Shown here: piece after piece, positions 29,997 through 44,555 of the stretch
Numbering within the stretch: the stretch's first letter is position 1
Layout: each line of letters starts with the position of its first letter
Source of the DNA: Escherichia phage vB_EcoM-RPN242
Sequence record: OL656110.1
Strand: one strand, 5' to 3'
DNA: 64,000 nucleotides
The notes under the pieces: generated by a model
Told to the model about the DNA's origin: nothing
Seen by the model: the letters and a program-made list of their open reading frames with translations, nothing else
The model's database searches: none
Program-made: the position numbers and the translations under genes

Positions 29997-30610
29997 TATC
30001 TTGTCCTCTTCAGTTTCTCTATTGTGTGCTTGTTCATGGTGATCACCTGAGGATCTACCTCGGAGATGGTCCGGCCTTCGAAGGACACACATTTCTGAAG
30101 ATATTTAGCTTTCTTCACGACGTCGGCAGCATAAGCGTTCGATGCAGGATTACGGGCGAAGCCAGCATTGTAAGAGGAGAGGGATTTGCGGATATTCTGA
30201 TTGTGATAGGTCAGCCAGAACTGCATCTCATCGAGGGCGGCTTGCGCGGCATATTCTTGGTCGGTCAGCAACTTTATAGCGACATTGGCATAGCACTTGC
30301 GATTCTTACAACCTTCGCGATCACCAACTGTCTTCACCTTGTTCTGAAAGGCTCCCATGTTGGCCGCCTTGAGGTCGTATCGCATTGACACTACATCTTC
30401 ACCAGCGCGGCTCTCTCGCCAAGATATGGCGGCCAGAGTGTAGCCAAGATCTTGTGTCTTGCCTACGTGATAGGCGGTTGCCAGCGTATTAAGTTGTTGC
30501 TCGGAGAAATTATAATCGCATTGGGTGGTACTTTGGGAAGCGTGCACATTCCCGCTGGCAATGGTAAAGGTCACGGACAAGGCCATGGCCTTCAACGTTG
30601 TCATCGTCAT
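29996..30610 (-). CDS. secreted SLT-domain protein (lytic transglycosylase-like) with signal peptide
   Basis: 204 aa; N-terminal signal-like MTMTTLKAMALSVTFTIASGNVHA; SLT motifs LAAISWRESRAGED (catalytic ES) and SSYNAGF. Confidence 0.6.
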   Translation of the reverse strand: MTMTTLKAMALSVTFTIASGNVHASQSTTQCDYNFSEQQLNTLATAYHVGKTQDLGYTLAAISWRESRAGEDVVSMRYDLKAANMGAFQNKVKTVGDREGCKNRKCYANVAIKLLTDQEYAAQAALDEMQFWLTYHNQNIRKSLSSYNAGFARNPASNAYAADVVKKAKYLQKCVSFEGRTISEVDPQVITMNKHTIEKLKRTR

Positions 30611-30707
30611 GATGGCGTTCCTTATGTTTTGTCGACTTGCAGCTCGCTTGAGCCTCCTGACAGGGGTTAAAAGATAAAGGGCACGTGGTATTTAGTGCCC
30701 TTCAGCC

Positions 30708-30992
30708 TCATTCGTAGATGAGGTGGTAGGATTCCTCGATACACTCCAGCCAGCCGTAGACGAACTGTAGAGGGTCATCCCATGCCGTCTTGGTCGCGAC
30801 GGTAAAGTTGCCGTCCAGGATCTGCATATCTTGGTACTTGTTGAAAGCGAGTACAGCATCAACCACAATCAGGCCGCCCTGCTCAAGATAACGATTCGGA
30901 GTGACGGTCACTTGGTAATGAGGATTCCTGCGATTCCATATCTCCACAGCAATGTCACAGGATTCCTGAATTTCATCTTTGTTTTCTGACAT
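30708..30992 (-). CDS. hypothetical protein (94 aa)
   Basis: Complete ORF with ATG start. Confidence 0.5.
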   Translation of the reverse strand: MSENKDEIQESCDIAVEIWNRRNPHYQVTVTPNRYLEQGGLIVVDAVLAFNKYQDMQILDGNFTVATKTAWDDPLQFVYGWLECIEESYHLIYE

Positions 30993-31302
30993 ACGTTTGT
31001 CTCAGATGTTCGGTAAAGGATTTACCCAGCTTGCGGAATAGTTTAATACGACCAATGACTTTGACGTAAACATCTCCGTGGCAGGGGCGCGGCTTACACC
31101 AGCACCCCAATACCTTCCCGTCAAGATCAAGGAGTTCATCCTCAGTGATATCCCCTTTAATCAGGCGCACATACAGGTCGTCCTCAAACAGTTCGATACA
31201 GACGCCTCGTCCATGGTCTTTGACCTCAAACGGGTTCCCCCATTTACCAGGCCGACCAATGTAGACGTCATATGGCTCCTTCTTGAAGTGGACGACTTTC
31301 AT
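30973..31302 (-). CDS. DUF4326-like protein
   Basis: 109 aa; YDVYIGRPGKWGNPF ... LGCWCKPRPCHGDV pattern typical of DUF4326. Confidence 0.5.
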   Translation of the reverse strand: MKVVHFKKEPYDVYIGRPGKWGNPFEVKDHGRGVCIELFEDDLYVRLIKGDITEDELLDLDGKVLGCWCKPRPCHGDVYVKVIGRIKLFRKLGKSFTEHLRQTYVRKQR

Positions 31303-31304
31303 TT

Positions 31305-31463
31305 CAGGATTTGACCTGCAAGTAGATAACAGAACCAGACAGAGAACCCGAGATACCCCAGTGCTTTCAGGTAGTTTTTCCTTTCGACTTCACGAGAAAA
31401 CGCAACGATGTCAATGATGCATGCAAAGACCAGGATTGCGAGTTTAATTTGTTCGTAGTCCAT
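31305..31463 (-). CDS. small membrane protein (about 52 aa)
   Basis: Manual translation MDYEQIKLAILVFACIIDIVAF...; below the track length cutoff; sits exactly between flanking genes. Confidence 0.35.
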
Positions 31464-31465
31464 GA

Positions 31466-33802
31466 TCAATCCTTCTTGATAACTTCAGTCAGGCCGTTTC
31501 GCAGGCCGTAGCGAATGTTGTGTTGGAAGTATTCCTGGAACTCCTGTTCGCGCTGGCTAATAACAAACAGGTTGTTCCCGCCGAACTTATGCTTCAACAT
31601 CTCAACAGATTCCTGCACCCCGCGCTCGCTCATGTTCTCAAGGATCTCGTCCAGCACGAACAGGTTACATTGTACAGACGCCTTGAGGTTAGCCACATCG
31701 CGCAGAGCTAATGTTACAGCCAGGTTCAGACGACTGCGCTGGCCAGTAGACAGGGAGAAGATACTCTGTCCTTTGCGACCTGCTGCGCTCATGGTGATCT
31801 CAAAGGTATCGTCAACAACGATGTCCAAGAACATGTTGAGGGCTTCAAGATACTCGTTGATCTTGCTATTGAGGAATGGCAAGTACAGGGCGATGATACG
31901 CGCCTTGGTCTGGTCATCCTTCAAGAAGAACAGCAGGTGCTGTAAGTCCTGGAGTTCCTCATCTGCATCTTCACGGAGTTCATACAGAGCCTCCAGTTCA
32001 CCTTCCAACGCAGCGATAGAGTTCTCCAGGTCGGTGGTAGGTGTTGGCTGTACAGCCAGTTTACGCTCCAGATCGGCAATAGACGCCACGAGAGGAGCAC
32101 GACGGGCTTTCAGCTCGGCGATCTTATCATCGACGGCTTTAATCCCGCTGACGGCATTCTCTCGCGTCTGTTGCAGCGAAGCAGTGATATCTTCAAAACG
32201 AACGTTCAGTGCCTTACGGATGTCAAGGATCTTCTGTTGGCATTCACGGTTCAGCGAATTACACTCAATCGTGGCGGCATCATGAAAACCTTGAATATCA
32301 CGGCGCAGCTGCTTGATGTTGTCAACGATTTCGTCGGCCTGCTTGCGCATGGCATCCAGTTCAGCATCCAACACAGCAATGTCAGCAACCAGCTTGTCGT
32401 CCTGAGCCTTGTGATCATCGATCAGGACATTGATATCGGCGGTAACTTTGTCCAGTTGATCTAACTTCGACTGTAGTTCCTGGATCTGAGGATTGTACTC
32501 ACTCTCAATCCGCGCCTTGGTGTCATCAGACACCAGTTGGGTACATGTTGGGCAAGTCCCCATATCGTGGAAGCGCTTGATGGCCGACTGATGCCCCTCC
32601 ATTTCAGTCTGGAACTTGATACGGAAGTTCTCACCCTGCTGGCGGCGCTGAATAGCAGCGTTCAGGGTGTCCAGGTTTGTGTTGCGCTCGGTGAGCAGGG
32701 TGTTCTTGCGTTCGGCCACTGTAAAGGCGCGGTCACGCAAGACCTGAAGATCATGCTCCGCAGTAGACACTTCGATGCGCTCATAATCGTCAGCCTTGTC
32801 CTGCGCGGCGTCCTTCACCGCCTGGATCTTGGCATCAAAGTCTTTCTTGACAGCCTCGATCTCCACCATGGATTCATCATGCAGGCGGCTTTCTACCGTC
32901 TTCATTTCCTGGGTGGCTTCAAACTCCACAGCCGTGAGGCGGGTGCGCTCTTCATTCTGGGCGGCGATGTCAGCGTCTAGGGAAGTCAGGGCTTCCTGTT
33001 GCTGTACAAGGATATCGGCCGACTGCTGTTGGATAAGGGCATTGGACCGCTCTATCTGCTGTAGCTGCGTCTTCTTGTTGGTGCGGTCAACAACCTTCAA
33101 CGCACATTCATTCGCGATCGTGTCCAGCTTTTCGTTCGCTTTCTTGATGGCAGCCTTGACATCTTCGTTCATCAGGCTGAAGAAGCCCAAATCCCAGATA
33201 GTCTCCACCATGGCGCGGCGGTCGGCTGTGTACATCTCCGTGAACGGAATGAACTTCTCTTTGCCCAGCACCAGAGAGTTCTCAAACATCTTCTGGTCCA
33301 CGCCGATGAGGTTCACGATGTACTTGTTCATGTCGGCTTTGGCTGCTTCGTTATCGATCTGCAACCACTTGCCGTCCACCATCTGGTAGACTTCAACAAA
33401 GTCAGGTTTAATGCCACGGCGAACCTTCCATTCGCTACCACGGCAGGCAAACTCCACCTCACCCACACATTCCTTGCGGCTCTGTGAGTTAACCAGACCT
33501 GCCTTCTTCTCCTTCTTGCTGTATGTGTCGTTGTACAGTACGAAAAACAGCAGCCATACCAGCATCGTGGATTTACCCGCGCCGTTGTCATCAGACGTAA
33601 CAAGGGTGGCCGGGTTGCGCTGATAATCAATCTCCATGAACTGATTGCCGATGGAGCGGAAGTTCTTGGCGCGGCCTTTGCGGAAGGTCAGTTTGTGTGT
33701 AACAACGTTACGCACTTCAAATGGGACTTCAACCTCGACCGGGGCGTCGGCTTCCTTCAAAAGATTACCAAATTTGGTCAAGATATCTGTGCTCTGAGTC
33801 AT
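31466..33802 (-). CDS. 46: recombination nuclease subunit, SbcC/Rad50-like ATPase (T4 gp46-like)
   Basis: Start at second ATG 33802 just after gp47 stop; Walker A DDNGAGKST, long coiled coil with CPTC zinc hook, signature LSTGQRSR, Walker B LFVLDE. Confidence 0.85.
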   Translation of the reverse strand: MTQSTDILTKFGNLLKEADAPVEVEVPFEVRNVVTHKLTFRKGRAKNFRSIGNQFMEIDYQRNPATLVTSDDNGAGKSTMLVWLLFFVLYNDTYSKKEKKAGLVNSQSRKECVGEVEFACRGSEWKVRRGIKPDFVEVYQMVDGKWLQIDNEAAKADMNKYIVNLIGVDQKMFENSLVLGKEKFIPFTEMYTADRRAMVETIWDLGFFSLMNEDVKAAIKKANEKLDTIANECALKVVDRTNKKTQLQQIERSNALIQQQSADILVQQQEALTSLDADIAAQNEERTRLTAVEFEATQEMKTVESRLHDESMVEIEAVKKDFDAKIQAVKDAAQDKADDYERIEVSTAEHDLQVLRDRAFTVAERKNTLLTERNTNLDTLNAAIQRRQQGENFRIKFQTEMEGHQSAIKRFHDMGTCPTCTQLVSDDTKARIESEYNPQIQELQSKLDQLDKVTADINVLIDDHKAQDDKLVADIAVLDAELDAMRKQADEIVDNIKQLRRDIQGFHDAATIECNSLNRECQQKILDIRKALNVRFEDITASLQQTRENAVSGIKAVDDKIAELKARRAPLVASIADLERKLAVQPTPTTDLENSIAALEGELEALYELREDADEELQDLQHLLFFLKDDQTKARIIALYLPFLNSKINEYLEALNMFLDIVVDDTFEITMSAAGRKGQSIFSLSTGQRSRLNLAVTLALRDVANLKASVQCNLFVLDEILENMSERGVQESVEMLKHKFGGNNLFVISQREQEFQEYFQHNIRYGLRNGLTEVIKKD

Positions 33803-33803
33803 G

Positions 33804-34919
33804 TTATGCATCCAGTTTGTTCAGGCGTTGTTGGGCAGCATTATAGAAGTGCTCTGCCAGTTTACAGACGTTGTCGGGGCGCTGAATGTTGTTCCCGGCG
33901 CGGATATCCTTCTTCAGGACTTCCACCGCATCGGTCGCCACCATCTCTTCGGTGACCTCAACCTTCTCGGCAGCAACAGTAATCGTCCGGTCGATGAAGT
34001 TGTAGTCAATGCACTTACAGCGCTTCATGGCATCACAGAACTTTTCATAATGCTTAGCATTGTCACGGTTCTGTACAATAACCTTAACAATTTGCCCTTC
34101 AATACCCAAGCCTGTGTTCAACCATTCCGGGTCGATCCAATTACCTTCTTCATCAGATGACAACTTGGTGTAATCATATTCCACATAGCGGAACAGCGTC
34201 TGGTGCTCGGCGTTCGGGATAAAGATCTCACCACCACGCATGTCGTCCACATAGAAGCCACGGTTAGTGCCGTCTTTGTAGTCTTCCCAGTTCAGGTGAT
34301 ATGGAGTCCCAATATATTGAATGTTACCTTCCATCGAACGGGTATGGAAATGGCCCGTGTCGACCCTGGTAAACTTGGAAAGCAGAGCAACGTCGATCTG
34401 ACCGTGATCACAAGTAGAAGACTGGTACATTTTGAACCCCGCCAGCTCCAGATGCGCAAAACAGTACTCGGCGTCTGTATCTTGTATCGCTTTAATAGAC
34501 GCATCATAGTTCTCCTTGTTGATCCAAGGCAGCAGCAGAGTCTTGACACCCTCGATCATCACTTCGGTCGGTTCGCTGTAATAGCAGTACACATCCGGGT
34601 CGAGTTCGTTCAGGTAGGATGGCCAGTTGATGCGGTTGGACTCTTCCAGGGTGATGTCATGGTTGCCCACGATGCCATTCCACTTGATACCAGCCGCTTT
34701 CAACGCAGGGGTGAGTTCATCCTTCAGCCAGTCTTTGTCGCGCCCGTACATGAATTTGCGGACATCAAACGTATCACCGAACTGCCAGACCTCTTTGATA
34801 TCAGAGTCGGCAAGTTCAGGAATGAAATAATTGATAAGATAGTTCTTGATGAAGTCGCGAACGTATCGAGAACCATTACGGCTCCCGATATGCAGATCGC
34901 CAATTTTAGCAATCGCCAT
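33804..34919 (-). CDS. 47: recombination nuclease subunit, SbcD/Mre11-like phosphoesterase (T4 gp47-like)
   Basis: 371 aa; phosphoesterase motifs GDLHIG, GDTFD, GNHD, GHFH. Confidence 0.8.
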   Translation of the reverse strand: MAIAKIGDLHIGSRNGSRYVRDFIKNYLINYFIPELADSDIKEVWQFGDTFDVRKFMYGRDKDWLKDELTPALKAAGIKWNGIVGNHDITLEESNRINWPSYLNELDPDVYCYYSEPTEVMIEGVKTLLLPWINKENYDASIKAIQDTDAEYCFAHLELAGFKMYQSSTCDHGQIDVALLSKFTRVDTGHFHTRSMEGNIQYIGTPYHLNWEDYKDGTNRGFYVDDMRGGEIFIPNAEHQTLFRYVEYDYTKLSSDEEGNWIDPEWLNTGLGIEGQIVKVIVQNRDNAKHYEKFCDAMKRCKCIDYNFIDRTITVAAEKVEVTEEMVATDAVEVLKKDIRAGNNIQRPDNVCKLAEHFYNAAQQRLNKLDA

Positions 34920-35697
34920 TGTTCTTTTTCTCCCGTTCTTCTAATCTTTGTTTGAGGGCTTCCCAATCTGGTTCCATCGCACAGATATCATCTTCCAGAT
35001 TGAATTGGGTTTTGCCGAAGTCTTGATCTGAATTGTCTTCGGCCTGCGCTGTTACCGTATTCTTAGCCTGCGCCATGTATTGAAGTATGCCTTTCGCAAT
35101 CTTTTTATTCGATTCTGCGAGACGAGCTGCCTCCACCTTCTCTCGCTCCTTCTGCCTTTGAGCGTCCTTTTTGTTCTCAAAGTTGCCGATACGTTCACGG
35201 AAGTCCATGCCAATTCCTGTAGCATCAACAAAGACCTCTTGTTGGAAGTCGGGATCGTCTGCCAGGCCTGCGAACCCACCCGCCTCTTCAAATGAGCGCA
35301 ATTTAATGTACGTGTGCTCTTCTTCGATATTCAGTTTACGAGCGAATGATCGATCAGCACACATGGTCACCCAAGAGAAGAAGTTGATCTTCCCTTTCTT
35401 TCCAATGTGTTCGACGTCAAATGTGTGGAGGTAGCGCAAGATGTTGACTATTGCTTCAGAGACCATGTCTTCACGGAAGGGATAGTCGCGATAGTTGTAG
35501 CGGGTGCTCATCTTGGTGATGATGCGCTGGACCTGTAGAGCAACATAGTTGGGGATCTTTGGAAGCCTGGTGCCTTCAGCCAGAGCCTTCTTACGAGCAG
35601 GGATCCAATCACGAAGGATACTGATGACACGCTCGTTATCTTCGTCTGTGAAATATTTGACGACATTCTCCCCTCTGTCCACGAAGTTCATTCCCAT
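34906..35697 (-). CDS. 55: late-transcription sigma factor (T4 gp55-like)
   Basis: 263 aa; NYVALQVQRIITKMSTRYNYRDYPFREDMVSEAIVNILRYLHTFD aligns with the T4 gp55 core; lies upstream of gp47/gp46 as in T4. Confidence 0.7.
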   Translation of the reverse strand: MGMNFVDRGENVVKYFTDEDNERVISILRDWIPARKKALAEGTRLPKIPNYVALQVQRIITKMSTRYNYRDYPFREDMVSEAIVNILRYLHTFDVEHIGKKGKINFFSWVTMCADRSFARKLNIEEEHTYIKLRSFEEAGGFAGLADDPDFQQEVFVDATGIGMDFRERIGNFENKKDAQRQKEREKVEAARLAESNKKIAKGILQYMAQAKNTVTAQAEDNSDQDFGKTQFNLEDDICAMEPDWEALKQRLEEREKKNNGDC

Positions 35698-35708
35698 TAT
35701 GAAATCCC

Positions 35709-36236
35709 TCAGATACCGATAAATTCATCAAAAGATCCAACAACCTTCTTCACCGAGATCTTGTCATTCTCAATCAGGAAGTTGCTGTCGTTTTTGGCTG
35801 CTGTGGCCCAGTCATCGGCAAGTTCGTTGCCTTCGTGCCCCGCATGACCCTTAACCCATTTTAGTTCAACATCACAAATTGAACAAACGAGATCATAGAT
35901 TCTGAACAGATCTTTGATGAGTTCAACGTTCTTTTCTGGGAAACCCTGATACTCCCACTTCGCTCGCCATTCGGTGACGCTCTTGATAGCATATTGGCTG
36001 TCAGACCAAATTGTTGCCTTTGGTATTCTGCGCTCACCCTTTCCTGAGAATGCCCACAGTAGCTTCAATGCGTTGGTCACACCCAACAACTCGGCGATAT
36101 TGTTAGTGGACGGGGGAGGTAGATGACCGAAGAACACCTTCCATTGCATACCCGTTATTGGCCTGATGACAAATGCCCATCCTGCGGCCTGGTTGGTCTT
36201 CGGGTTAGAACCCCCGTCAGAATAAATTTCTATCAT
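35709..36236 (-). CDS. rnhA: ribonuclease HI (RnhA-type)
   Basis: Start at ATG 36236 (MIEIYSDGG...); DEDD catalytic pattern YSDGG, NNIAELLGV, IWSDSQY, KGHAGHEGNELAD. Confidence 0.85.
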   Translation of the reverse strand: MIEIYSDGGSNPKTNQAAGWAFVIRPITGMQWKVFFGHLPPPSTNNIAELLGVTNALKLLWAFSGKGERRIPKATIWSDSQYAIKSVTEWRAKWEYQGFPEKNVELIKDLFRIYDLVCSICDVELKWVKGHAGHEGNELADDWATAAKNDSNFLIENDKISVKKVVGSFDEFIGI

Positions 36237-36238
36237 GA

Positions 36239-36246
36239 TATAAATA
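36239..36246 (+). promoter_or_regulatory. T4-type late promoter box TATAAATA
   Basis: Exact TATAAATA 36 nt upstream of the plus-strand ATG at 36282. Confidence 0.5.
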
Positions 36247-36281
36247 TCCCAAACTGGTTTTATAGAAAGAGGAATGAAACT

Positions 36282-37049
36282 ATGGCACCCCGCGCATATC
36301 GTTTCAGTCTCACCGCCCCGCAGATTGAGCAATTGCTCCTCTCTATCTATGATGCTATCAAGTCAGAAGATATCATCTATGATTATGCTGCAGGTGGGAC
36401 TGCTGGACAAGTCGCAGCAGCTTCTGCTGTCAAGAACATGTGGTTGAAGCTCAACGAGATGGTGACAGGCCAAGGTCTCAAAGATGCCATCAACGATGCA
36501 GAAGACAGCAACGTGTTCACCGACTATTATAAGTCTTTACTGGATCGCGAAGGTTGGAAATTTATTGGATCTCCAGCAGATGAACTTCAGCGAGGCGACA
36601 TCGATACCTCGAACTTCAAAGGTGGTGAGGTCATTCTACTTCAGAAGAACGCTTCGGGCAACCCAGAATTCCAATACTGGAAGCGAACCCCTGTTGCTGG
36701 GGGTGATCCTACCTTTGCATGGGCTTCGGTCTATGAAGGGAACTCCAATGATTCCAGCATAGAGATTCCCGTGGTTGGCACCAGCGTACTCAAGGACATC
36801 CCCAAGGCACTCTTCCATATGATCGAGTTCAGAGTGCATGTCTACGATGAGACACTGGGTCATTGGCAAGACACCGACGGGAAGGTAGGGTATCGTGGCG
36901 AGGATCTGATCTACAGTGTATACAACCATATTCAGACCAAACCTCTCGCCACCATTGACTTCAGCCAAGATACGGACAATATGACGGTTTCTGTAACGTC
37001 GTTGGAACCGAATGTCAAGTGCCATCTGTCCTTCGTTGCGGGTTACTAA
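36282..37049 (+). CDS. hypothetical late protein (255 aa), possibly structural
   Basis: ATG at 36282 with AGAGGAATGAAAC leader; lone plus-strand gene inside a minus-strand block; late promoter upstream. Confidence 0.6.
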   Translation: MAPRAYRFSLTAPQIEQLLLSIYDAIKSEDIIYDYAAGGTAGQVAAASAVKNMWLKLNEMVTGQGLKDAINDAEDSNVFTDYYKSLLDREGWKFIGSPADELQRGDIDTSNFKGGEVILLQKNASGNPEFQYWKRTPVAGGDPTFAWASVYEGNSNDSSIEIPVVGTSVLKDIPKALFHMIEFRVHVYDETLGHWQDTDGKVGYRGEDLIYSVYNHIQTKPLATIDFSQDTDNMTVSVTSLEPNVKCHLSFVAGY

Positions 37050-38764
37050 ACCTCAAACACGGCATCAGTGAACCAAGCGGGGAAGAACTCTGGGTTGCGC
37101 ATCATCAGTGATTCAAAAGAAGAATCAAGGATGTACGTCGCAGCCCAGTCATTCACACCCCTGACCGAACGCCCACACATCTGAACGATACGCAGTACCG
37201 CCATCCTGAAGTACGCCGATGGGTCCACGCTGTTGACGTGGGCCACCAGAGGATCACCAAGGTAATCATATGGCACCTTGATCAAGATCTGAAATCGACT
37301 ATAATCGCCTTTGAAGTCATACCCCTCTTCCATGGCCGGACTGGCGATGACACAAGGCGTCTTCGTCCTGAACGCGTGTTCCATGATGTCCATCAGAGCC
37401 TTACGAGTACGAGGAACGTGAATCATATTCCGGTACTTACTGAACTTTTGTAGAGCCAGGGCGCGGTCATAACTGACTGTGTGAATGATGCCAGACTGCC
37501 CAGGGTGGAACGCGATAATTTCATCCACGTATTCAGCCAGCTTCTTCATCTCGTAGTCGCCCATGTTCGCTGTCATCTTCATGATGGGCATGTAGTTGAC
37601 TTTCCGGTTCTCAATCGGGATAGGGTTGCCGATCTGTATCTTGTGGTACTCACCCTCGCGGATACCCAGTGACCGGGCGTACGAGTCAATCCCACAAATG
37701 GTAGCCGACATGTGGACGTGGTAGTCACCCTTGCGGAACAGACCGAACTGGGATACATCAGAGGCGATGACAGGCTTGAACTGAATCATACCCTTGTCCT
37801 TCTCCTGTACGATGAAAGTGCTGGCGTTGGTCTGCCCCATGATACCACAGTAGTCGCTGAGGTTGTGAAGATTATCAATAATATCAGACAGCTTCATCAC
37901 CTGGGCTTCAGTCAGGCGCTCGTCCTCTACCAGTTCCTCAAGAGTTTCCAATAGGGCTTCAACCTTGCCATACAGTTCATCAAATATCGCATGCATCTCA
38001 CCAGACAGGGAATACAGCTTGCCCAATTCGTAGTTCTCTGTGCGGATGATGATATCCTTGATGGTCTCCACGATAGGCACTCCCTCGGGGATCGTAAGCA
38101 ACCCTTCCACAGCCTTTATGTTGTATTCCATGATAGTATGCTCTAGGAGCGTAGAGGGCATCTTATGACACTCGTCAAGGATCAGCATATCGGCACGGTT
38201 TTCCGGCTTCATACAAATCGTCGTACACATCTCCACCATCATGGCGGCGTTGGTGCAGCGCAGGGAGGAGACGTCGGTCCACTGTCTACGCGCCTGAACA
38301 TATGGGCAACGATTCTTACTACAGTGGCCATCACGGCATGCCATACGGCACTGAATGGCGTTGTAGTATAGGTCGGGACTGATGTGGCAACGATAGTTCT
38401 TCTTGCCCTTCAGGATGTCTATCGCCACGGCTTTCTCTGCTGCATACTGATCCTGTAAACCTTTGGTCGGCGTCGTGATAGACGTGCGGAACTGACCATA
38501 CGGGTTGTGCTCAAGAACCAAATGGCGAAGCACGTTATGGATGGTAGTGCCGATGAGGGATTTACCTACACCAGTCGGAGCCTCGATGATCACGTGTTTG
38601 AATTTCTTATTCACAAGGGCATCGATGGCTTCAACGATGCATTCCATCTGGCCGGGGTTGGCGGTGTCATACGGGAAGAACTCAGTGGCAAGAGACTTGA
38701 TGCGGTCTATGCTGACTGGTCCGACGCCGTTAAGCGCCTTGGTATATTGGTTGAATGCTGTCAC
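37046..38764 (-). CDS. DinG/XPD-like superfamily-2 DNA helicase with Fe-S cluster cysteines
   Basis: 572 aa; GTG start preceded by AGGAGGA; Walker A APTGVGKS, DECH box LILDECH, four-Cys cluster YRCH...CRMACRDGHCSKNRC. Confidence 0.7.
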   Translation of the reverse strand: MTAFNQYTKALNGVGPVSIDRIKSLATEFFPYDTANPGQMECIVEAIDALVNKKFKHVIIEAPTGVGKSLIGTTIHNVLRHLVLEHNPYGQFRTSITTPTKGLQDQYAAEKAVAIDILKGKKNYRCHISPDLYYNAIQCRMACRDGHCSKNRCPYVQARRQWTDVSSLRCTNAAMMVEMCTTICMKPENRADMLILDECHKMPSTLLEHTIMEYNIKAVEGLLTIPEGVPIVETIKDIIIRTENYELGKLYSLSGEMHAIFDELYGKVEALLETLEELVEDERLTEAQVMKLSDIIDNLHNLSDYCGIMGQTNASTFIVQEKDKGMIQFKPVIASDVSQFGLFRKGDYHVHMSATICGIDSYARSLGIREGEYHKIQIGNPIPIENRKVNYMPIMKMTANMGDYEMKKLAEYVDEIIAFHPGQSGIIHTVSYDRALALQKFSKYRNMIHVPRTRKALMDIMEHAFRTKTPCVIASPAMEEGYDFKGDYSRFQILIKVPYDYLGDPLVAHVNSVDPSAYFRMAVLRIVQMCGRSVRGVNDWAATYILDSSFESLMMRNPEFFPAWFTDAVFEV

Positions 38765-38811
38765 TTTCTTCCTCCTATGGGATTCGCCTTTAGTTTAACC
38801 GATTCCCAGGA

Positions 38812-38850
38812 ACGAAAAAGCCGGAGCATTGTACTCCGGCTTTCTCTTTT
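38812..38850. terminator. bidirectional rho-independent terminator
   Basis: agccggag-cattgta-ctccggct hairpin (38819..38841) with T-run on plus strand and A-run on the other side. Confidence 0.65.
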
Positions 38851-38892
38851 GCCATACCCTGATTGCAGAGCCTGGCCGCGCGTCAGATAGAA

Positions 38893-39171
38893 TTACTTGC
38901 CGTTGGCAGCGTTCTTCAGACCTTCGCCCACTTTGAATTTCACAACGTTTTTCGCCGCGATCTGAATGGTCTGGCCGTTCAGAGGGTTGCGACCTTCACG
39001 CGCTTCTTGGTGTTTCACTTCGAACGCACCGAAGCCAACCAGCTGTACAGATGCGCCTGCAGCAACTGCAGTTTTAACACCGTCGATAAAGGATGCCACT
39101 ACTTTCTCCGCTTCGCCTTTGGTGATATTCTGGGTCGAAGCAATGTGGGCAACAAATTCAGTACGATTCAT
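38893..39171 (-). CDS. HU/IHF-family DNA-binding protein
   Basis: 92 aa; MNRTEFV ... FGAFEVKHQEAREGRNPLNGQTIQIAAKNVVKFKVGEGLKNA, the HU beta-arm signature. Confidence 0.8.
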   Translation of the reverse strand: MNRTEFVAHIASTQNITKGEAEKVVASFIDGVKTAVAAGASVQLVGFGAFEVKHQEAREGRNPLNGQTIQIAAKNVVKFKVGEGLKNAANGK

Positions 39172-39264
39172 CTGGATTTCTCCGTTGGGTTAATGTTTAC
39201 TTTCATGTTCACTACAAGAGGACTACATCTTACCTAACAAAACATATTGAATAAAGCGAAATTA

Positions 39265-39513
39265 TTAGCCTTTCGCCACGTCTTCAGTCGTCATCGTGCC
39301 ATAACATCCACAGCGTTCACAAATCACTCTGACGCAAGGCTTAAAAGTCTGAATATTAGTCACAGGAACGTTCACCGCCTTTGAAGAAACTTGCATTTCG
39401 CGGACTTCAACCCGTTGTTCGGCCAGGCGCTCATCGTCCAAGAAGGTGATCGTCTTGTGAGAACAACGCATTGACGATTCACCAACCCAGATTATTGCCA
39501 TGTTGGGACTCAT
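39265..39513 (-). CDS. hypothetical protein (82 aa) with CxxC pair
   Basis: Complete ORF with ATG start; ICERCGCYG. Confidence 0.45.
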   Translation of the reverse strand: MSPNMAIIWVGESSMRCSHKTITFLDDERLAEQRVEVREMQVSSKAVNVPVTNIQTFKPCVRVICERCGCYGTMTTEDVAKG

Positions 39514-39788
39514 GATTTGACCTCCGATTTGGAGATTAACGATTCCATCTCCTGACGACCAATGACAGTCTCAACTTTGTCTTCTTCAACCATCATTTCA
39601 TTCAGAAGATCGTACCCCAGGACTTGTACACCAAAAGACTTTTTGTTCAGTTCTGCCTCAATATTGAGAACTCGCTGAACCGTCAGGCCACCGGAAGAGA
39701 ACGGTACTGGATAGAAGGCGGAACGCACTTGGACACACCCATTTACGCTGTAACGAACCAGCAAGACATCACACCATACGCCAGCCAT
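39510..39788 (-). CDS. hypothetical protein (92 aa)
   Basis: Complete ORF with ATG start. Confidence 0.45.
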   Translation of the reverse strand: MAGVWCDVLLVRYSVNGCVQVRSAFYPVPFSSGGLTVQRVLNIEAELNKKSFGVQVLGYDLLNEMMVEEDKVETVIGRQEMESLISKSEVKS

Positions 39789-39789
39789 G

Positions 39790-40452
39790 TCACACCTCCA
39801 CCGCGTGAGACTTCAGGAGTTCATCAATCTCTTTCTGCCCCATGTATGAGAACGGGGTGCGCTGGTAGAACGCCCAGAGTACTAACTGGACAACAGCACG
39901 GGAACGGGTTTCGGCCGTCATCACCAGGCCACTGAAATGAGGAGACTCAGCTGTCCATTGTATCTCTTCGCCCAGGTCTTGATTACAGGTCACCGAGATG
40001 CGGAACTTGTTGCACAGATTGTCGACTTCTTTGTACGCATCGGTAGACACACGAAGTTGTTCCGAATGTGCCCACGGAGTTGTGACGATTCTTTCACCCA
40101 TCACTTTATCAGAGATAAACCAATCAATACATTCGGTAAACTCACTAAAATGGTCTATACGATAAATGCAGTCTCCCCCTTCCATAGAACGCATGGCATG
40201 ATAGCGAGAGTCGATTTCGTTGTTGTGCATCGCGTTGAAGTCGATGAACACGCGACGCGCCAGCACAACGTCTTCTGGTTGAAGTGCCAGGAAATCGTTC
40301 AGGCGGCTATAATGGAGGATATTGGAACCGTCGTGGCCACGTGTGCAATATGCGTAATAGCTACCGATACGGGCGTGGGCAATATAAGACAACGGGGCGA
40401 AGAATAATCCGTCAGGATCAGGACCGACGATAATAGAATAAAGTTTTTCCAT
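39790..40452 (-). CDS. hypothetical protein (220 aa)
   Basis: First ATG at 40452 (MEKLYSI...) with ...ACTATATC leader; track start is TTG. Confidence 0.5.
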   Translation of the reverse strand: MEKLYSIIVGPDPDGLFFAPLSYIAHARIGSYYAYCTRGHDGSNILHYSRLNDFLALQPEDVVLARRVFIDFNAMHNNEIDSRYHAMRSMEGGDCIYRIDHFSEFTECIDWFISDKVMGERIVTTPWAHSEQLRVSTDAYKEVDNLCNKFRISVTCNQDLGEEIQWTAESPHFSGLVMTAETRSRAVVQLVLWAFYQRTPFSYMGQKEIDELLKSHAVEV

Positions 40453-40508
40453 GATATAGTCACTCAAATGAAAGGGCAGCTTTATGATAAGCCGCCCGAG
40501 GTTATTGA

Positions 40509-41375
40509 TTATTGGAAATCGCCAACATACATATTCAGCTTGTCGTCCCAGTTCAGAACGACACGGATCGTTCCAGTATCTTCTGGGAAGGTCAGTTTGT
40601 CACACATGGCGCGATTAACATAAGTCCCGCTCTGGTTGACGTTGTAGTCCTTGCCTTGCATGATACCAAAACGCTTGAAGTCGCGAGTGACCATCATGTT
40701 CAGAGTTGTCCAAGGGATTGCATCGCGCAGGGCTTTGCACAGGACGATCTTGCCATCCGACCTGAACGACACAAACAGCTCGTTGGCGACACGACGGCGA
40801 GTAGGCGGTTCAAGTTCACGCAGGGAAATGAATTGTGAATTCTTTACCTTTTCTGCCAGCGCCTGTACTTCTGCTGGATCCGGCTTGAACGGCTCCACTG
40901 AAGAGTCAGACTTCATCACAACGTCACCCTTGCGCTTCTCGACCAATTGCTCCACAGCCTTTTGACTCACGGGCGGGAGGTATTTGGACTTAGGAACAAC
41001 CGCTGGCTTGATGACAGGGCTTGCATCTGGTTTCGCCTTTGGGGTACTCCGAGCCGCACGCAGCTTTTCCTGGGCTTCCAGAATGCGCTCTTGACGAGAA
41101 AGCGGAGCCTTTGGGGTGATCTTCGTACTGAAGTCAGAAACGCCGACCCAGTCACCCTGGTCATTACGCTTGGCCACCAGAGTCAGTTTGTGGATGATAC
41201 CCTGAAGTTTGCTCTCACGTAAGTTGTCGGCATACCAGAACTTCGCGCCCATCTCGAACTTCTCGGCGAAGATCACGCGAGCGTCTTCGTGTACCAACAT
41301 AACTTTGGCTGCGTTGGGGGCAAAAGCCTTATTCTTTTCGATAATCGCCGCAGCGATTGTTTTGGTCAGGAGCAT
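40509..41375 (-). CDS. hypothetical protein with Lys/Pro-rich linker
   Basis: 288 aa from ATG 41375 (track start GTG at 41378); central KAKPDASPVIKPAVVPKSKYLPP. Confidence 0.55.
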   Translation of the reverse strand: MLLTKTIAAAIIEKNKAFAPNAAKVMLVHEDARVIFAEKFEMGAKFWYADNLRESKLQGIIHKLTLVAKRNDQGDWVGVSDFSTKITPKAPLSRQERILEAQEKLRAARSTPKAKPDASPVIKPAVVPKSKYLPPVSQKAVEQLVEKRKGDVVMKSDSSVEPFKPDPAEVQALAEKVKNSQFISLRELEPPTRRRVANELFVSFRSDGKIVLCKALRDAIPWTTLNMMVTRDFKRFGIMQGKDYNVNQSGTYVNRAMCDKLTFPEDTGTIRVVLNWDDKLNMYVGDFQ

Positions 41376-41414
41376 CACAGTGTATTCCTTCAGTTCACAA
41401 TGTAGGGCTAAATT

Positions 41415-41741
41415 TTAACCCGAAACTTTATTTTGAAATCCGACAAAGTCCTGGGCAATCCCCCGGCAATACATCAGGTCTTTCTTCGTTTGTGGACTGT
41501 TGTCAGCCGCAGTCAGCATCATGGGAAGGTCCAGCGCATTCTCTATCTGATCAACACTGAACAGATCAAGGCGCTTCAGCTCTCCCTCGAAGTCAGACAG
41601 TAGGATAGATGTGTCTTTGTCATCTGGGTGGAACTGCTGATACGTCTCCATCCATGCCACACATGTGTTCAGTTTGGACGGCGGCGCAGCGTTTACACAC
41701 CCGGCTATCAGTACCATCAAGAGCAGGATTTTACATTTCAT
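41415..41741 (-). CDS. putative lipoprotein
   Basis: N-terminal MKCKILLLMVLIAGC with lipobox L-I-A-G-C. Confidence 0.55.
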   Translation of the reverse strand: MKCKILLLMVLIAGCVNAAPPSKLNTCVAWMETYQQFHPDDKDTSILLSDFEGELKRLDLFSVDQIENALDLPMMLTAADNSPQTKKDLMYCRGIAQDFVGFQNKVSG

Positions 41742-42427
41742 CACTCGTTCTCCTTCATCATATTGTCGCAGTCAACACGAGTCTGCTGAAGTTCGCGCGA
41801 CATGCGAGGATCATCAAGGTTCACGCTCAGATTCGTGGCCAGGTCTTTCAGACCGTTCTGAACCCTGTCTTCAAAGTAATAATCGTTCTCAACCAGCCAG
41901 GCTCTGAGACCAAGAGCGCGGGTGCGCCATTCCTTCTTCAGGACGCGATCAGAGGTCTGCGTAGCGCTGTATTCGAATACTTTGATGCACTGGTTGCCAT
42001 CGTTGATAAGGTTCAGGTGGCGGCGACCAACCTGCACACCCTTCTGTAATGCCGGAGAAGGGAGCGAACGGCACTGTCTTACGGTCATTCGGCCTTGGGT
42101 GCCCATTCGGCCAGTCATGATCAAATCGCCAGCCTCCATGCCTCCACGGTTAAATTCGTCGTCATTGAGGTAGCCTTTGAGGTTATAGGCTCCCTGTTTG
42201 TAACGGTTGAACTCAATTCCGGCATTGACGACAGCAGTGGAGACGTTGCCTGTGTTCCAGAGTTCAGCGAAGTTCTCTATGGAACCAGACTTGTCGATGG
42301 CAACCGCCTGGGAGAACCCAGCACAATAGGAAAGGTCGGACCACAGTTTATCACCTGTGGAGTTCAGCTTGGCAGCGGCGGGTAATGCCAGACCAGCCAG
42401 CACAACCCCGAGGATTAAACGTTTCAT
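41741..42427 (-). CDS. secreted/periplasmic hypothetical protein
   Basis: Start at ATG 42427 (MKRLILGVVLAGLALPAAA...), a signal-peptide-like N-terminus. Confidence 0.5.
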   Translation of the reverse strand: MKRLILGVVLAGLALPAAAKLNSTGDKLWSDLSYCAGFSQAVAIDKSGSIENFAELWNTGNVSTAVVNAGIEFNRYKQGAYNLKGYLNDDEFNRGGMEAGDLIMTGRMGTQGRMTVRQCRSLPSPALQKGVQVGRRHLNLINDGNQCIKVFEYSATQTSDRVLKKEWRTRALGLRAWLVENDYYFEDRVQNGLKDLATNLSVNLDDPRMSRELQQTRVDCDNMMKENE

Positions 42428-42506
42428 GGCGATTCTCCTTATTTCATTGGATGAAATGATAGGCGGCTCACCATGATGAGTAAAGGGTTTCAATAAACTA
42501 TCGTAT

Positions 42507-42956
42507 TCAGAAACGGGTATCGCTGACCGTTCTGTATCGCACACCCTGAAACTGTTTAGCGAGTTTAACAAATTCCATCGCTGGCAAATCAACTTTGTAG
42601 ACCTTCATGCGCTGTTTGCCATCCATGTTCAACGCAGCGACAAATCGGTGAGAACCGTCAATAACGTAATTGTCAGAAGACACCCAAACTCGACCCATAG
42701 GTTTCTTATTTCTGATCTGCTTCATAATCTTCCAGACCTTCATTTTATTGATTTCGTTCTGGGTGAGACGAAGCATTTTGATGGGCACTTGCACAGCATC
42801 TATGGACACGCCGTTGTCTTCAAGATATTTGTGAAAATCTTCTTGTTTGTCGGCATCGATTTGTGGCATAGAAGAACGAGAAAGCCCGAGGTTCCCAACA
42901 GGAATCCTCAGGCCGTTAATGATGTTCAACCAGTCAATAAAGGATGTAAGGAACAT
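42507..42956 (-). CDS. ParB/sulfiredoxin-fold nuclease-like domain protein
   Basis: 149 aa; LRLTQNE ... YVIDGSHRFVAA resembles the ParB N-terminal domain signature. Tentative. Confidence 0.4.
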   Translation of the reverse strand: MFLTSFIDWLNIINGLRIPVGNLGLSRSSMPQIDADKQEDFHKYLEDNGVSIDAVQVPIKMLRLTQNEINKMKVWKIMKQIRNKKPMGRVWVSSDNYVIDGSHRFVAALNMDGKQRMKVYKVDLPAMEFVKLAKQFQGVRYRTVSDTRF

Positions 42957-42988
42957 GACACACCTCGGGATATAGGGTTATCCCTTAG

Positions 42989-43180
42989 TTAGCGCATCCA
43001 TCGATCCTTTCTCTCTTTCTCCTTGCGTTCGCGACGTTTCTGGTCGGATCGTAATAACCAATAGAAGAAGTTCCCACCCAAGATGAAAACCACCGCGATT
43101 ATTACTAGGACACCCTTCACAATTTCCCAAACCAATTCTTTATCCAAATTACACCTCGTCTTCTTCAGGTCCACCGTCAA
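42989..43180 (-). CDS. possible small membrane protein (63 aa)
   Basis: Single TM-like segment plus basic C-terminus; track start is TTG and no upstream ATG exists. Confidence 0.25.
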   Translation of the reverse strand: MTVDLKKTRCNLDKELVWEIVKGVLVIIAVVFILGGNFFYWLLRSDQKRRERKEKERKDRWMR

Positions 43181-43436
43181 TCAGGATACGAGCGGTGTCG
43201 AAAGTTTCCCCGCCCGTGTTCAGCAGCTTGGTCAGATCGTCAAGATATCGGACCGTACCAAGATCAGATGACCGCGATATAAACTCCAGCATGCCATACA
43301 ACGCTGTTTGGAATCGGCTGTTATCGATATCGTTCTTTATTACCATCAGGCGCAAGATGTTCTCTGACTGAGTATGGTCAACACACGCCTTGTCTCTGAT
43401 CATCTCCTTGATAGAACTTCTCTCTGATGGTGTCAT
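43149..43436 (-). CDS. hypothetical protein (95 aa)
   Basis: Complete ORF with ATG start. Confidence 0.45.
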   Translation of the reverse strand: MTPSERSSIKEMIRDKACVDHTQSENILRLMVIKNDIDNSRFQTALYGMLEFISRSSDLGTVRYLDDLTKLLNTGGETFDTARILIDGGPEEDEV

Positions 43437-43807
43437 AACGTACCCCCGACAGAGATCAAGAACTCTTCTTGCATGGTCTTGACCGGGTGGTGGTTGCGGG
43501 TTTCGAACATGAAGCCCCAGCCACCGTCGGCGACGTTGCCAAAGGTCTTGACGCCAAAGGACTTCGTCCCGTTAGAGCAGGAATAGATGTCCAGGACGTA
43601 TGGGCTACCCTGATTGTCGATCCCACGATTCACGTCGTCTGATACGCAGCGCTCAATCATCTTCCCGTTCTTATACAGAACGAGGTCTTGGCCATACGCC
43701 TTGAAAGCATAAACACCGTTGGTAGACACTCCGGTGATGACAGGAGGGGCGGAAACAGCAGCAAAGGAAGCGCCCAGCAGAGCAACAGCGAGGATTAACT
43801 TTTTCAT
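43433..43807 (-). CDS. secreted hypothetical protein
   Basis: Start at ATG 43807 (MKKLILAVALLGASFAAVSA...) with AGAGACTATATC leader. Confidence 0.55.
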   Translation of the reverse strand: MKKLILAVALLGASFAAVSAPPVITGVSTNGVYAFKAYGQDLVLYKNGKMIERCVSDDVNRGIDNQGSPYVLDIYSCSNGTKSFGVKTFGNVADGGWGFMFETRNHHPVKTMQEEFLISVGGTL

Positions 43808-43866
43808 GATATAGTCTCTTGGTTTCAAATGGGCGGGGTAATCATACCCCGCCCAAAGTTATAGAA

Positions 43867-44106: not shown

Positions 44107-44189
44107 GATATAATCTTACCTTTCAACCCGGTGAACCCATCGTTCGCCAGTTATTGAATAATAGGACATTCCTTAGAGGAAGTAAACCC

Positions 44190-44223: not shown

Positions 44224-44228
44224 TTCTG

Positions 44229-44552: not shown

Positions 44553-44555
44553 GCT

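Follow-up and report, generated by a model that had tools for sequence, protein, structure and literature searches.

Late promoters of phage T4 carry the octamer TATAAATA; gp55 and gp33 together read it, and the gp45 clamp provides the activation. In the T4 virion, the C-terminal domain of gp9 is the coaxial docking site of the long tail fibre (PMC3004832). Phages of the Ackermannviridae are stated in a review to be without gp9-gp11, and the tailspike TSP4 of phage CBA120 carries an N-terminal gp9/gp10-like module, XD1 (PMC8825819, PMC8432352). It is from the anchor domain of TSP4 that the branched complex of four tailspikes arises. The locus closest to the one described here belongs to Dickeya phage LIMEstone1: the late promoter and the structural status of its ORF093, 92% identical to our protein, were already published in 2012 (HE600015; Adriaenssens et al. 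2012, PMC3296691), and the structural status was confirmed again by proteomics in 2024. What is new here is that the C-terminal end of the protein resembles gp9, the tail-fibre socket protein of T4.

An isolated plus-strand gene

The window that we analysed is a 64 kb stretch (64,000 nucleotides) of Escherichia phage vB_EcoM-RPN242 (OL656110.1). The phage shows 99.4% identity to Escherichia phages PC3 and PH4 and is a ViI-like, Agtrevirus-type member of the Ackermannviridae. The gene under study starts with the ATG at 36282 and ends with the TAA at 37047..37049 (Table 1). A first-pass annotation of the sequence had placed it between RNase H and a DinG-like helicase and overlapping the helicase stop; this arrangement was confirmed, the two gene ends sharing 4 nt. 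On the other side, the divergent gap between RNase HI and the gene is only 45 nt. The gene was also described as a lone plus-strand gene, which is correct for 15326..48045, where it is the sole plus-strand gene between gp25 (14945..15325) and 48046, but not for the window, which has further plus-strand genes at 7136, 11942, 12748, 13261, 14945, 57129 and ~60991 (that at 48046 is doubtful). The phrog_3833 profile matched the protein over its full length (residues 1-255, E 4e-160), and orthologs were identified as LIMEstone1 ORF093, AG3 orf124, Vi01 CBW37973 and Sajous1 gp203. The order RNase HI (-), this gene (+), helicase (-) was found in 9 genomes of 7 genera, and in unclassified Vibrio phages as well.

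Table 1. Coordinates of the gene, its flanking elements, other boxed genes and the late transcription proteins in the window
Feature	Position	Strand	Basis
CDS, 255 aa, phrog_3833, virion protein by orthology	36282..37049	+	profile match, synteny, ortholog proteomes
N-terminal two-thirds, aa 1-156: helices 12-20, 48-57, 64-72, 81-90, then beta strands	36282..36749	+	AF2
C-terminal beta-sandwich, aa 157-254, homologous to T4 gp9 C-terminal domain (PF23618, T4_gp9_10_C)	36750..37043	+	AF2, Foldseek, hhalign, hmmsearch
Late-promoter box TATAAATA, T4 gp55-type extended -10, no -35	36239..36246	+	exact match; LIMEstone1 annotation; conserved position
Predicted late transcription start AAA, 5-7 nt past box	36251..36253	+	T4 late-promoter geometry and sequence
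Shine-Dalgarno AAAGAGGAA; GAGG core ends 9 nt before ATG	36266..36274	+	sequence
RNase HI, divergent neighbour; start codon 2 nt from box	35709..36236	-	PF00075, phrog_531
DinG/Rad3-type helicase, convergent neighbour; 4 nt common to both gene ends	37046..38764	-	ResIII/DEAD/Helicase_C_2
GC-rich hairpin between A-run and T-run, bidirectional terminator	38817..38843	.	homologous LIMEstone1 site annotated terminator
Box TATAAATA, 34 nt before gp54-like tail-tube initiator gene (7136..8080)	7094..7101	+	exact match
Box CTTAAATA, 32 nt before gp2 (6378..7082), back to back with 7094 box	7113..7120	-	motif match
Box CATAAATA, 34 nt before gp5 (13261..14871)	13219..13226	+	motif match
Box CCTAAATA in CCCCC/GGGGG hairpin loop, 32 nt before ORF078-like gene (25320..25673)	25704..25711	-	motif match
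Box TATAAATA, 23 nt before 101-aa gene, directly after GC hairpin	26088..26095	-	exact match
101-aa gene, N-terminal half of relatives' 189-aa virion protein (LIMEstone1 ORF080)	25759..26064	-	homolog comparison
gp33-like late co-activator	9476..9721	-	phrog_254, E 3e-20
gp55-like late sigma factor	34906..35697	-	phrog_234, E 3e-52
gp45-like sliding clamp	56099..56767	-	phrog_223, E 1e-64

The putative late-promoter box and its distribution in the window

The exact TATAAATA reported ahead of the gene is present at 36239..36246. Its upstream placement stands; the gap to the ATG is 35 nt, the 36 nt first given being the distance measured from the final base of the box. We found the exact octamer three times in the 64 kb, at 7094..7101 (+), 26088..26095 (-) and 36239..36246 (+), where 0.67 occurrences are expected by chance. 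Since 2 of 100 shuffles also reached three, the count of exact boxes alone is weak evidence, marginally above chance. Their placement is stronger evidence than their count. All three lie in intergenic DNA, which makes up 8% of the window (p ~5e-4), and a start codon follows each of them 23-35 nt downstream. In an unbiased hexamer scan, TAAATA ranked first in the zone from -16 to -70 upstream of genes, with 12 of its 24 occurrences in that zone against 0.9 expected (p 2.5e-10); 12 of the 24 were intergenic (p 7e-8). Boxes across the window end 23-38 nt before start codons, and the genes that bear them belong to T4 late classes (gp54, gp5, gp2, endolysin, resolvase and virion proteins).

The two further exact boxes named in the first-pass annotation were found where it had put them, both ahead of orthologs of confirmed virion proteins. 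For LIMEstone1, the record lists the gp54 ortholog, ORF50, as a 'confirmed structural protein', and AG3 'Porf072' has the same sequence as the box at 7094..7101. The LIMEstone1 record likewise has a late promoter ahead of ORF080, also a 'confirmed structural protein', whose counterpart in the window, the 101-aa gene, has been shortened by a deletion of about 273 nt. A late promoter is annotated at LIMEstone1 ORF078 as well, another confirmed structural protein, and AG3 'Porf084' is nearly identical to the region of the box at 13219..13226, with one base different upstream of the box. A general rule by which every plus-strand gene of the window would be late or structural was discarded: the genes at 57129 and ~60991 have no box, and neither of the corresponding LIMEstone1 proteins, ORF121 and ORF128, has been confirmed as structural, ORF121 being annotated with a 'middle promoter'.

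The box of our gene is annotated as a 'putative late promoter' in the LIMEstone1 record (GenBank HE600015). At the same position beside the RNase HI start, TATAAATA was found in Limestonevirus, Taipeivirus, Nezavisimistyvirus and Miltonvirus, TATAAGTA in Kuttervirus and CTAAATA in two Vibrio phages; Vibrio phage 1.255.O has no clear box at the homologous site. The box position is kept across seven genera, and the box is retained although the proteins in some Ackermannviridae genera are only ~27-34% identical. The flanks diverge between genera whereas the box stays conserved. The exact octamer, on which the first-pass annotation had relied, is the wrong criterion: the working consensus in this phage is looser than TATAAATA, namely NTAAATA, and Kuttervirus has its variant at this very site. 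Because the Kuttervirus ortholog is nevertheless abundant in virions, either the box tolerates change or another signal contributes.

A sigma-70-type promoter was sought on the plus strand in the 45-nt gap upstream of the ATG, and none was found. The candidates considered, for this gene and for an internal minus-strand promoter of RNase HI and gp55, reached no more than weak 9/12 matches, a level also expected in shuffled sequence, and were rejected.

Proposed late transcription

Late transcription of the T4 type, as the earlier annotation had proposed, is supported by the presence of gp55, gp33 and gp45 in the window together with the enrichment of TAAATA upstream of genes and the conservation of the box across genera. 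Judging from its sequence context, the gene is probably transcribed late from a T4-style promoter. Host RNA polymerase with gp55 and gp33, activated by the DNA-loaded gp45 clamp, would recognise TATAAATA at 36239..36246, would require no -35 element and would start near 36252. The gene is oriented opposite to the early/middle minus-strand operon around it (helicase, followed by RNase HI, gp55, gp47 and gp46), so that early minus-strand transcripts would cross it in antisense. Terminator-like sites on the plus strand after 37049 were sought, with none before 38817, and the late transcript may therefore continue in antisense into the helicase gene, at most to 38817..38843. A literature search returned no paper that combined Ackermannviridae, 'late genes' and RNA-seq, and no 5'-end data.

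Virion status of the protein

LIMEstone1 ORF093 was detected in the virion proteome with 8 unique peptides and 40.8% coverage (PMC3296691). For Sajous1 gp203, the Kuttervirus ortholog, purified virions yielded 39 spectra, a number exceeding those of gp5 and of the neck protein (PMC10892097). The earlier expectation that the gene is probably structural is thus confirmed for orthologs in the published virion proteomes of two phages, and by orthology we regard the 255-aa protein as a virion component. In the band-based mass spectrometry of AG3, orf124 was not among the listed proteins.

A C-terminal domain related to T4 gp9

AF2 predicted the C-terminal beta-sandwich with pLDDT above 90, and the top PDB match of both AF2 models in Foldseek was T4 gp9 (1qex_A, E about 5e-7). 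Matches in BFVD include the gp9+10 fusion of Aeromonas phage 65 and tail-fibre proteins. When the protein family was compared with gp9 by hhalign, the E value fell as the family was deepened (0.073, 0.01, 6.6e-5 and, over the full length, 2.3e-8), and the comparison of the domain only gave an E value of 1.2e-12 (Prob 97.8%); Prob was 95-98% for the deepest full-length and the domain-only comparisons. When every PDB sequence was searched with the family profile by hmmsearch, gp9 was the only significant match (E 5.8e-4). These results demonstrate that the C-terminal domain of the protein is homologous to the domain of gp9 formed by residues 169-272. The relationship is a distant one, since the Pfam model PF23618 itself gave no match.

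For residues 1-156, no relative was detected outside the protein's own family. Confidence in AF2 was low over aa 1-87; the first model was poor over the N-terminal 60%, and the second was better for residues 90-150 only. Comparison of aa 1-156 with gp9 1-174 by hhalign gave an E value of 0.13, no better than the cross-controls (0.05-0.35), and neither T4_gp9_10_N (PF07880; gp9 residues 7-168) nor T4_gp9_10_C matched at any threshold. The N-terminal part being without significant similarity to gp9 and Pfam without a match, the protein is not a full gp9 ortholog. Otherwise Pfam returned sub-threshold noise only (DUF4859), NCBIfam nothing, and PHROGs 'unknown function'. Single-sequence and shallow-profile searches of PDB sequences gave no match, none of the solved Ackermannviridae chains in the PDB matched by sequence, and a second, profile-based homolog search added two sequences only. 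An early hhalign pairing of TDYYK/DDIDT with TGYYQK/HDIDTS of gp9 was discarded as evidence: with deeper profiles and separated domains the N-terminal part is not significant, and the short motif FTD..K..L also occurs as tandem repeats in unrelated long proteins, Pfam scans of which were uninformative.

Alternative explanations

We consider it likely that a single explanation covers these data, namely that the gene encodes a 255-aa virion component with a gp9-homologous C-terminal domain and is transcribed late in the gp55 manner. The octamer might instead be AT-rich intergenic DNA or part of the RNase HI 5' region, with another promoter (sigma-70-like or middle-type) in place of a gp55-dependent one. 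The count of exact boxes, barely above chance, would fit this, as would the G in the Kuttervirus box and LIMEstone1 ORF121, another lone plus-strand gene, for which a middle and not a late promoter is annotated; moreover, just 2 nt separate the box from the start codon of RNase HI, and conservation of the box could therefore partly reflect the 5' end of that gene. We nonetheless think such an origin improbable, because only 45 nt are available for another promoter, the plus strand upstream of the ATG contains no sigma-70-like promoter, the region has no more promoter-like sites than shuffled sequence would give, the box is conserved between divergent flanks, and TAAATA is the most enriched upstream hexamer, at a tight 23-38 nt from starts that include those of gp5, gp54, gp2 and confirmed virion proteins. 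Far less probable still is that the protein is not structural at all, but acts in morphogenesis or is simply an abundant late product carried along when particles are purified. Both proteomes do contain non-structural proteins (DNA ligase, PhoH, gp44 and terminase), but such contaminants are represented by 1 peptide or by 1-4 spectra each, against 8 peptides with 41% coverage and 39 spectra for the orthologs of our protein. In addition, these detections come from two different genera and laboratories, and the other proteins known to carry the gp9-type domain are virion proteins.

Within the reading of a late virion component, the place of the protein in the particle can be viewed in two ways. 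The protein may be a baseplate adaptor. In the fullest version of this reading it would be the missing counterpart of gp9: a trimeric socket at the baseplate rim that would sit with its lineage-specific N-terminus on the gp7 homolog, dock an appendage with its C-terminus (the anchor domain of TSP4 being the most interesting candidate, or else the prongs), and, like gp9 in T4, couple receptor binding to contraction of the sheath. That fullest version is in our judgement rather unlikely. Somewhat better placed, and still tentative, is the alternative that the protein is a virion component other than a gp9-like baseplate socket, its beta-sandwich being a generic module of fibre and spike proteins; it could then be located, with the same tentativeness, in the neck or collar, in the prong-like structures found below the baseplate, or on the head or tail as decoration. 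The relation to gp9 is confined to roughly 100 C-terminal residues, and Foldseek also matched podovirus tailspike and tail-fibre structures, as BFVD did many tail-fibre proteins, so that a position in the particle cannot be read from the fold. The gene also lies far from the baseplate and tailspike clusters, and the Ackermannviridae have prong structures of unknown composition according to a review (PMC11721090). On the other hand, gp9 itself was the best match in both Foldseek runs and in the hmmsearch against PDB sequences, and the protein is gp9-like in length and in the order of its elements (helical N-terminus, beta middle, C-terminal beta-sandwich), with the boundary near residue 160-170. 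A homolog of gp7, the partner of gp9 in T4, is moreover among the virion proteins of LIMEstone1.

Significance

Simple rules carry over to the ViI-like phages: a T4-type box, a late sigma factor and opposing gene orientation together correctly picked out virion genes among 'hypothetical proteins'. The gp9-type domain bears on the statement that the Ackermannviridae lack gp9-gp11. How their branched tailspike complex is attached to the baseplate, and how contraction is triggered, may be approached through this protein, which is a concrete candidate link because it is a conserved, fairly abundant virion protein and bears the domain by which the trigger protein of T4 docks fibres. Phages of this family serve in biocontrol and in the engineering of host range.

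Comparison with known systems

Compared with LIMEstone1, nothing substantive differs. The 45-nt upstream region including the box is identical, and the RNase HI and helicase neighbours and the 4-nt tail-to-tail overlap are the same; the phage of the window is of another species or genus, Agtrevirus-like and closest to PC3 and PH4. With the late promoters of T4 the locus shares the octamer, the lack of a -35 element and the same three proteins. Its boxes likewise precede genes for virion proteins, for lysis and for functions related to packaging, of which some lie within early operons but in the opposite direction. In contrast to T4, the predicted promoter consensus of the window is shorter and looser, NTAAATA, with C/T before TAAATA and often pyrimidines after it, and TATAAGTA would be tolerated in Kuttervirus and CTAAATA used in the Vibrio members.

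The protein resembles T4 gp9 (PDB 1QEX/1S2E; PF07880 and PF23618) in its homologous C-terminal beta-sandwich, in size (255 against 288 aa), in the similar order from a helical N-terminus through a beta middle to the sandwich, and in being a virion protein. It differs from gp9 in that no relationship is detectable over its N-terminal and middle parts and Pfam gives no match, and in that its gene is isolated, whereas the gp9 gene adjoins genes 8 and 10. As the Ackermannviridae are without long tail fibres of the T4 type, any docking partner must differ. Like our protein, TSP4 of CBA120 is an Ackermannviridae virion protein that contains a domain related to gp9; it was absent among the Foldseek matches listed for our protein. 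In TSP4, however, residues 1 to about 217 resemble the N-terminal and middle part of gp9, whereas the protein described here has the complementary C-terminal piece.

Gene layout around the lone plus-strand gene

The gene map of the window was the vB_CECAV_050 annotation carried over by tblastn. Over 3.1 kb around the gene under study, a 255-aa ORF of family phrog_3833, the Escherichia phages PC3 and PH4 were 99.4% identical to the window, and Agtrevirus-type Ackermannviridae (Ag3, Marshall, Maynard, vB_CECAV_050) showed 94-99% identity. Genes for replication, recombination and nucleotide metabolism on the minus strand fill almost the entire window, in a block broken by a few plus-strand islands. 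Among mapped genes, the 255-aa gene is the only plus-strand one from 15326 to 48045. The first-pass annotation had described it as a lone gene behind a late-promoter-like box, placed between RNase HI and a helicase whose stop it overlaps; both observations are confirmed. The start as listed (36123) was rejected because the extension overlaps RNase HI. The true start is the ATG at 36282, which has a good Shine-Dalgarno sequence in front, and the annotations of all relatives agree with this version. The divergent gap to RNase HI is 45 nt, and 2 nt separate the box from the RNase HI start codon.

Features of the window discussed in the text
Feature	Position	Strand	Remark
Exact box TATAAATA	7094	+	gp2/gp54-like gap; faces gp54
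Late-type box CTTAAATA	7113..7120	-	gp2/gp54-like gap
gp54-like	7136..8080	+	plus-strand island
gp26-like	11942..12748	+	plus-strand island
Small ORF		+	plus-strand island between gp26-like and gp5
gp5	13261..14871	+	plus-strand island
gp25	14945..15325	+	plus-strand island
TAAATA box	15702..15709	-	inside coding sequence
CCTAAATAC	within 25695..25720	-	loop of CCCCC/GGGGG hairpin
Exact box TATAAATA	26088	-	directly after GC hairpin GCCCCTTCGGGGGC (26096..26115)
RNase HI	start 36236	-	PF00075
Exact box TATAAATA	36239	+	upstream of 255-aa gene
255-aa gene	36282..37049	+	plus-strand island
DinG/Rad3-type helicase	37046..38764	-	4-nt overlap with 3' end of 255-aa gene
Terminator-like hairpin	38817..38843	both	A-run on one side, T-run on the other
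ORF	48046..48837	+	plus-strand island
TAAATA box	54600..54607	-	inside coding sequence
phrog_4255 gene	57129..57500	+	island, lone in minus-strand block
TAAATA box	59029..59036	-	inside coding sequence
phrog_3832 gene	~60820/60991..61470	+	island, lone in minus-strand block

Neither of the other two lone plus-strand genes has a late box ahead of it. Like the 255-aa gene, the phrog_4255 gene has a 4-nt overlap with the stop of the minus-strand gene after it, and its ortholog in Dickeya phage LIMEstone1 is annotated with a 'middle promoter'. The start codon of the phrog_3832 gene is uncertain (159, 216 or 271 aa); a signal peptide is predicted for the LIMEstone1 ortholog of ~60991..61470. Within a variable region (47005..48837), the vB_CECAV_050 'minor head protein' gene has no counterpart, and 47321..48045 holds no mapped gene. 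The ORF at 48046..48837 is annotated in vB_CECAV_050 but may be spurious, because it has neither a PHROG family match nor a box.

Evidence that the upstream box is a probable late promoter

The window holds three exact copies of TATAAATA and no others. Against 0.67 expected, with at least three copies in 2 of 100 shuffles, the count by itself is weak evidence. Their positions are stronger evidence, because all three are intergenic, although intergenic DNA makes up 8% of the window (p ~5e-4), and a start codon lies 23-35 nt downstream of each. We also ranked hexamers by enrichment in the zone -16 to -70 upstream of mapped genes, with no motif presupposed. TAAATA ranked first, with 12 of its 24 copies in the zone versus 0.9 expected (p 2.5e-10); TATAAT, the sigma-70 -10 hexamer, ranked third. 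TAAATA was intergenic in 12 of 24 copies (p 7e-8), and 11 of these 12 faced a start codon, at a distance of 23-38 nt in 10. The box-marked genes include gp54-like, gp5, gp2, the endolysin, a RuvC-type resolvase and orthologs of the LIMEstone1 virion proteins ORF078 and ORF080, and they fall in the late classes of T4. All of gp55, gp33 and gp45 are encoded in the window.

The box beside the RNase HI start codon is kept even where the proteins encoded next to it are only ~27-34% identical to that of the window. Limestonevirus, Taipeivirus, Nezavisimistyvirus and Miltonvirus have TATAAATA at this position, Kuttervirus (ECML-4, Sajous1) has TATAAGTA, and Vibrio phages SD25 and YC have CTAAATA; among the genomes compared, only Vibrio phage 1.255.O has no clear box there. 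These variants indicate that the family consensus is less strict than the octamer of T4, approximately NTAAATA with pyrimidines after it, in agreement with the consensus given in the AG3 and LIMEstone1 genome papers. The CBA120 genome paper stated that no late recognition sequence had been identified. The 45-nt gap contains no sequence that fits a sigma-70-type promoter. Taken together, the sigma and accessory genes, the hexamer enrichment, the late-class genes and the conservation support the box as a late promoter, and T4-type late transcription, as the first-pass annotation had proposed. A literature search for Ackermannviridae, 'late genes' and RNA-seq together found no paper; late timing of the 255-aa gene and its transcription start site are what we infer.

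Transcription through the locus

If T4 geometry is assumed, late transcripts would start at ~36251-36253 with a 5' UTR of ~30 nt. Past 37049 there is no plus-strand terminator-like site before the hairpin at 38817..38843, whose homologous site is annotated as a terminator in the LIMEstone1 record HE600015, and the late transcript would cover the helicase gene in antisense over ~1.8 kb unless Rho acts. No convincing minus-strand promoter was found inside the 255-aa gene; therefore, RNase HI, gp55, gp47 and gp46 are probably read by transcripts crossing it antisense. All the syntenic genomes examined share the opposed layout with tail-to-tail overlap, apart from Serratia phage 2050H1, in which the two genes abut. 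The hairpin also separates the gene for an HU-like DNA-binding protein from the helicase gene, so that the helicase would need its own promoter in 38765..38816, or read-through.

Boxed genes with orthologs among virion proteins

The first-pass reading of the three boxed genes as late and probably structural was right and already known; promoter statistics, conservation and proteomics of orthologs support it. The 45-nt upstream region in HE600015 is identical to that of the window. The record has a 'minus_10_signal, putative late promoter' at this place, and ORF093 (92% identical to the 255-aa protein) bears the label 'unknown structural protein; confirmed structural protein'. LIMEstone1 ORF93 was detected with 8 unique peptides and 40.8% coverage (PMC3296691). 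In Kuttervirus Sajous1 we identified gp203 as the ortholog; the 2024 proteome of virions purified on CsCl counted 39 spectra for it, more than for the neck protein (33), baseplate tail tube protein (24) or tail lysozyme (20) (PMC10892097). The LIMEstone1 counterparts of the other two boxed genes, ORF50 (gp54) and ORF080, are both confirmed structural, and the record marks a late promoter at the box ahead of ORF080. The published AG3 'Porf072' is the 7094 box with the same sequence, and 'Porf084' corresponds to the gp5 box, with one base different upstream of the box.

Within 25674..26064 (-), the 101-aa gene behind the 26088 box (25759..26064) corresponds to residues 1-100 of a virion protein that has 189 aa in relatives (LIMEstone1 ORF080, vB_CECAV_050 cecavS50_083). 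Through a deletion of ~273 nt, the C-terminal 88 residues are gone and the following late box, CCTAAATA (25704..25711), has come near. Other phages may also have the short form, as suggested by a separate short family (phrog_33165, 104 positions). Two minus-strand boxes are joined to GC hairpins (25695..25720 and 26096..26115), an arrangement that resembles terminator-promoter coupling from one virion gene to the next. The gene at 25320..25673 (-) is labelled 'starvation-inducible transcriptional regulator' by homology (phrog_858); this label is doubtful, because it is the ortholog of ORF078, a virion protein confirmed by mass spectrometry, and a late box lies in front. The phrog_3867 gene at 26120..28840 (-) encodes 906 aa versus 1024 aa in vB_CECAV_050, and the counterpart region of LIMEstone1 holds two confirmed structural proteins of far smaller size (ORF081, ORF082); its product looks like a size-variable virion protein.

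Two back-to-back late-type boxes lie in the 53-nt divergent gap (7083..7135) between gp2 (-) and gp54-like (+). LIMEstone1 and AG3 assign the single annotated box of this gap to gp2, whereas the exact octamer of the window faces gp54. TAAATA boxes at 54600, 59029 and 15702 precede the starts of regA, a Dda/UvsW-like helicase gene and a hypothetical gene by 25-31 nt, and may serve non-structural genes as internal late promoters; at the equivalent of 59036, LIMEstone1 has an annotated late promoter.

A C-terminal domain shared with T4 gp9

In standard libraries the 255-aa protein matched only phrog_3833, 'unknown function', with no Pfam or NCBIfam family and no PDB sequence relative. AlphaFold2 models from 31 and then 33 homologs gave a confident C-terminal beta-sandwich (residues ~160-254, pLDDT >90), moderate confidence for 90-150 and poor confidence for 1-87. 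The best Foldseek match in PDB for both models was T4 gp9, the baseplate wedge tail-fibre connector (1qex_A, E ~5e-7), followed by a Klebsiella phage KP1/Lilla1 baseplate chain and podovirus tailspike and tail-fibre structures; BFVD matches besides orthologs included the Aeromonas phage 65 gp9+10 fusion and many tail-fibre proteins.

We compared the gp9 family alignment (A2) with alignments of the 255-aa family of rising depth (A1; A3, with Vibrio orthologs; A5, to which an exhaustive HMMER search contributed representatives). With deepening profiles hhalign gave E-values of 0.073, 0.01, 6.6e-5 and 2.3e-8 (the last at Prob 95%), and residues ~157-254 aligned to gp9 171-280 in the single-sequence, A3 and A5 comparisons. 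The N-terminal part of the longer A1 alignment was rejected as evidence. When the proteins were split, the C-terminal parts matched at E 1.2e-12 (Prob 97.8%), and the N-terminal 156 residues versus gp9 1-174 gave E 0.13, the same as cross-controls. An hmmsearch of A5 against all 177,635 PDB sequences returned gp9 as the sole significant match (E 5.8e-4). The profile, structure and hmmsearch matches therefore demonstrate that the C-terminal domain is homologous to that of gp9. In Pfam terms the common piece is T4_gp9_10_C (PF23618); T4_gp9_10_N (PF07880) is not detectable, and gp9 orthology of the whole protein is not demonstrable.

By sequence, residues 62-88 (window 36465..36545, GLKDAIN..SNVFTDYYKSLLD) resemble a fibre-type repeat motif, N-x-F-T-D-x-x-K-x-x-L. 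The exhaustive profile search found long metagenomic proteins (~530-965 aa) in which this segment matches 6-9 tandem repeats and for which Pfam scans were uninformative; two other multi-stretch matches of the profile involve different segments.

Possible role at the baseplate

The protein is conserved in every genus examined and fairly abundant in particles, and a gp7 homolog was found in the LIMEstone1 virion (PMC3296691). Our best guess is an adaptor, putatively trimeric, at the baseplate periphery, whose C-terminal domain would hold a putative appendage partner. A serious rival is that it sits elsewhere in the virion, since gp9-C-like folds are common to many fibre and spike proteins. What this analysis adds is the quantified looser box consensus, the recognition of the 101-aa product as a virion protein cut short, and the gp9 C-terminal domain, from which comes a testable idea on how appendages attach to the Ackermannviridae baseplate. 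A 2024 review described the peripheral proteins gp9-gp11 as absent from these baseplates (PMC11721090). The only gp9 likeness reported so far in the family is in tailspike TSP4, whose N-terminal part resembles the N-terminal and middle part of gp9, whereas the 255-aa protein has the complementary domain.
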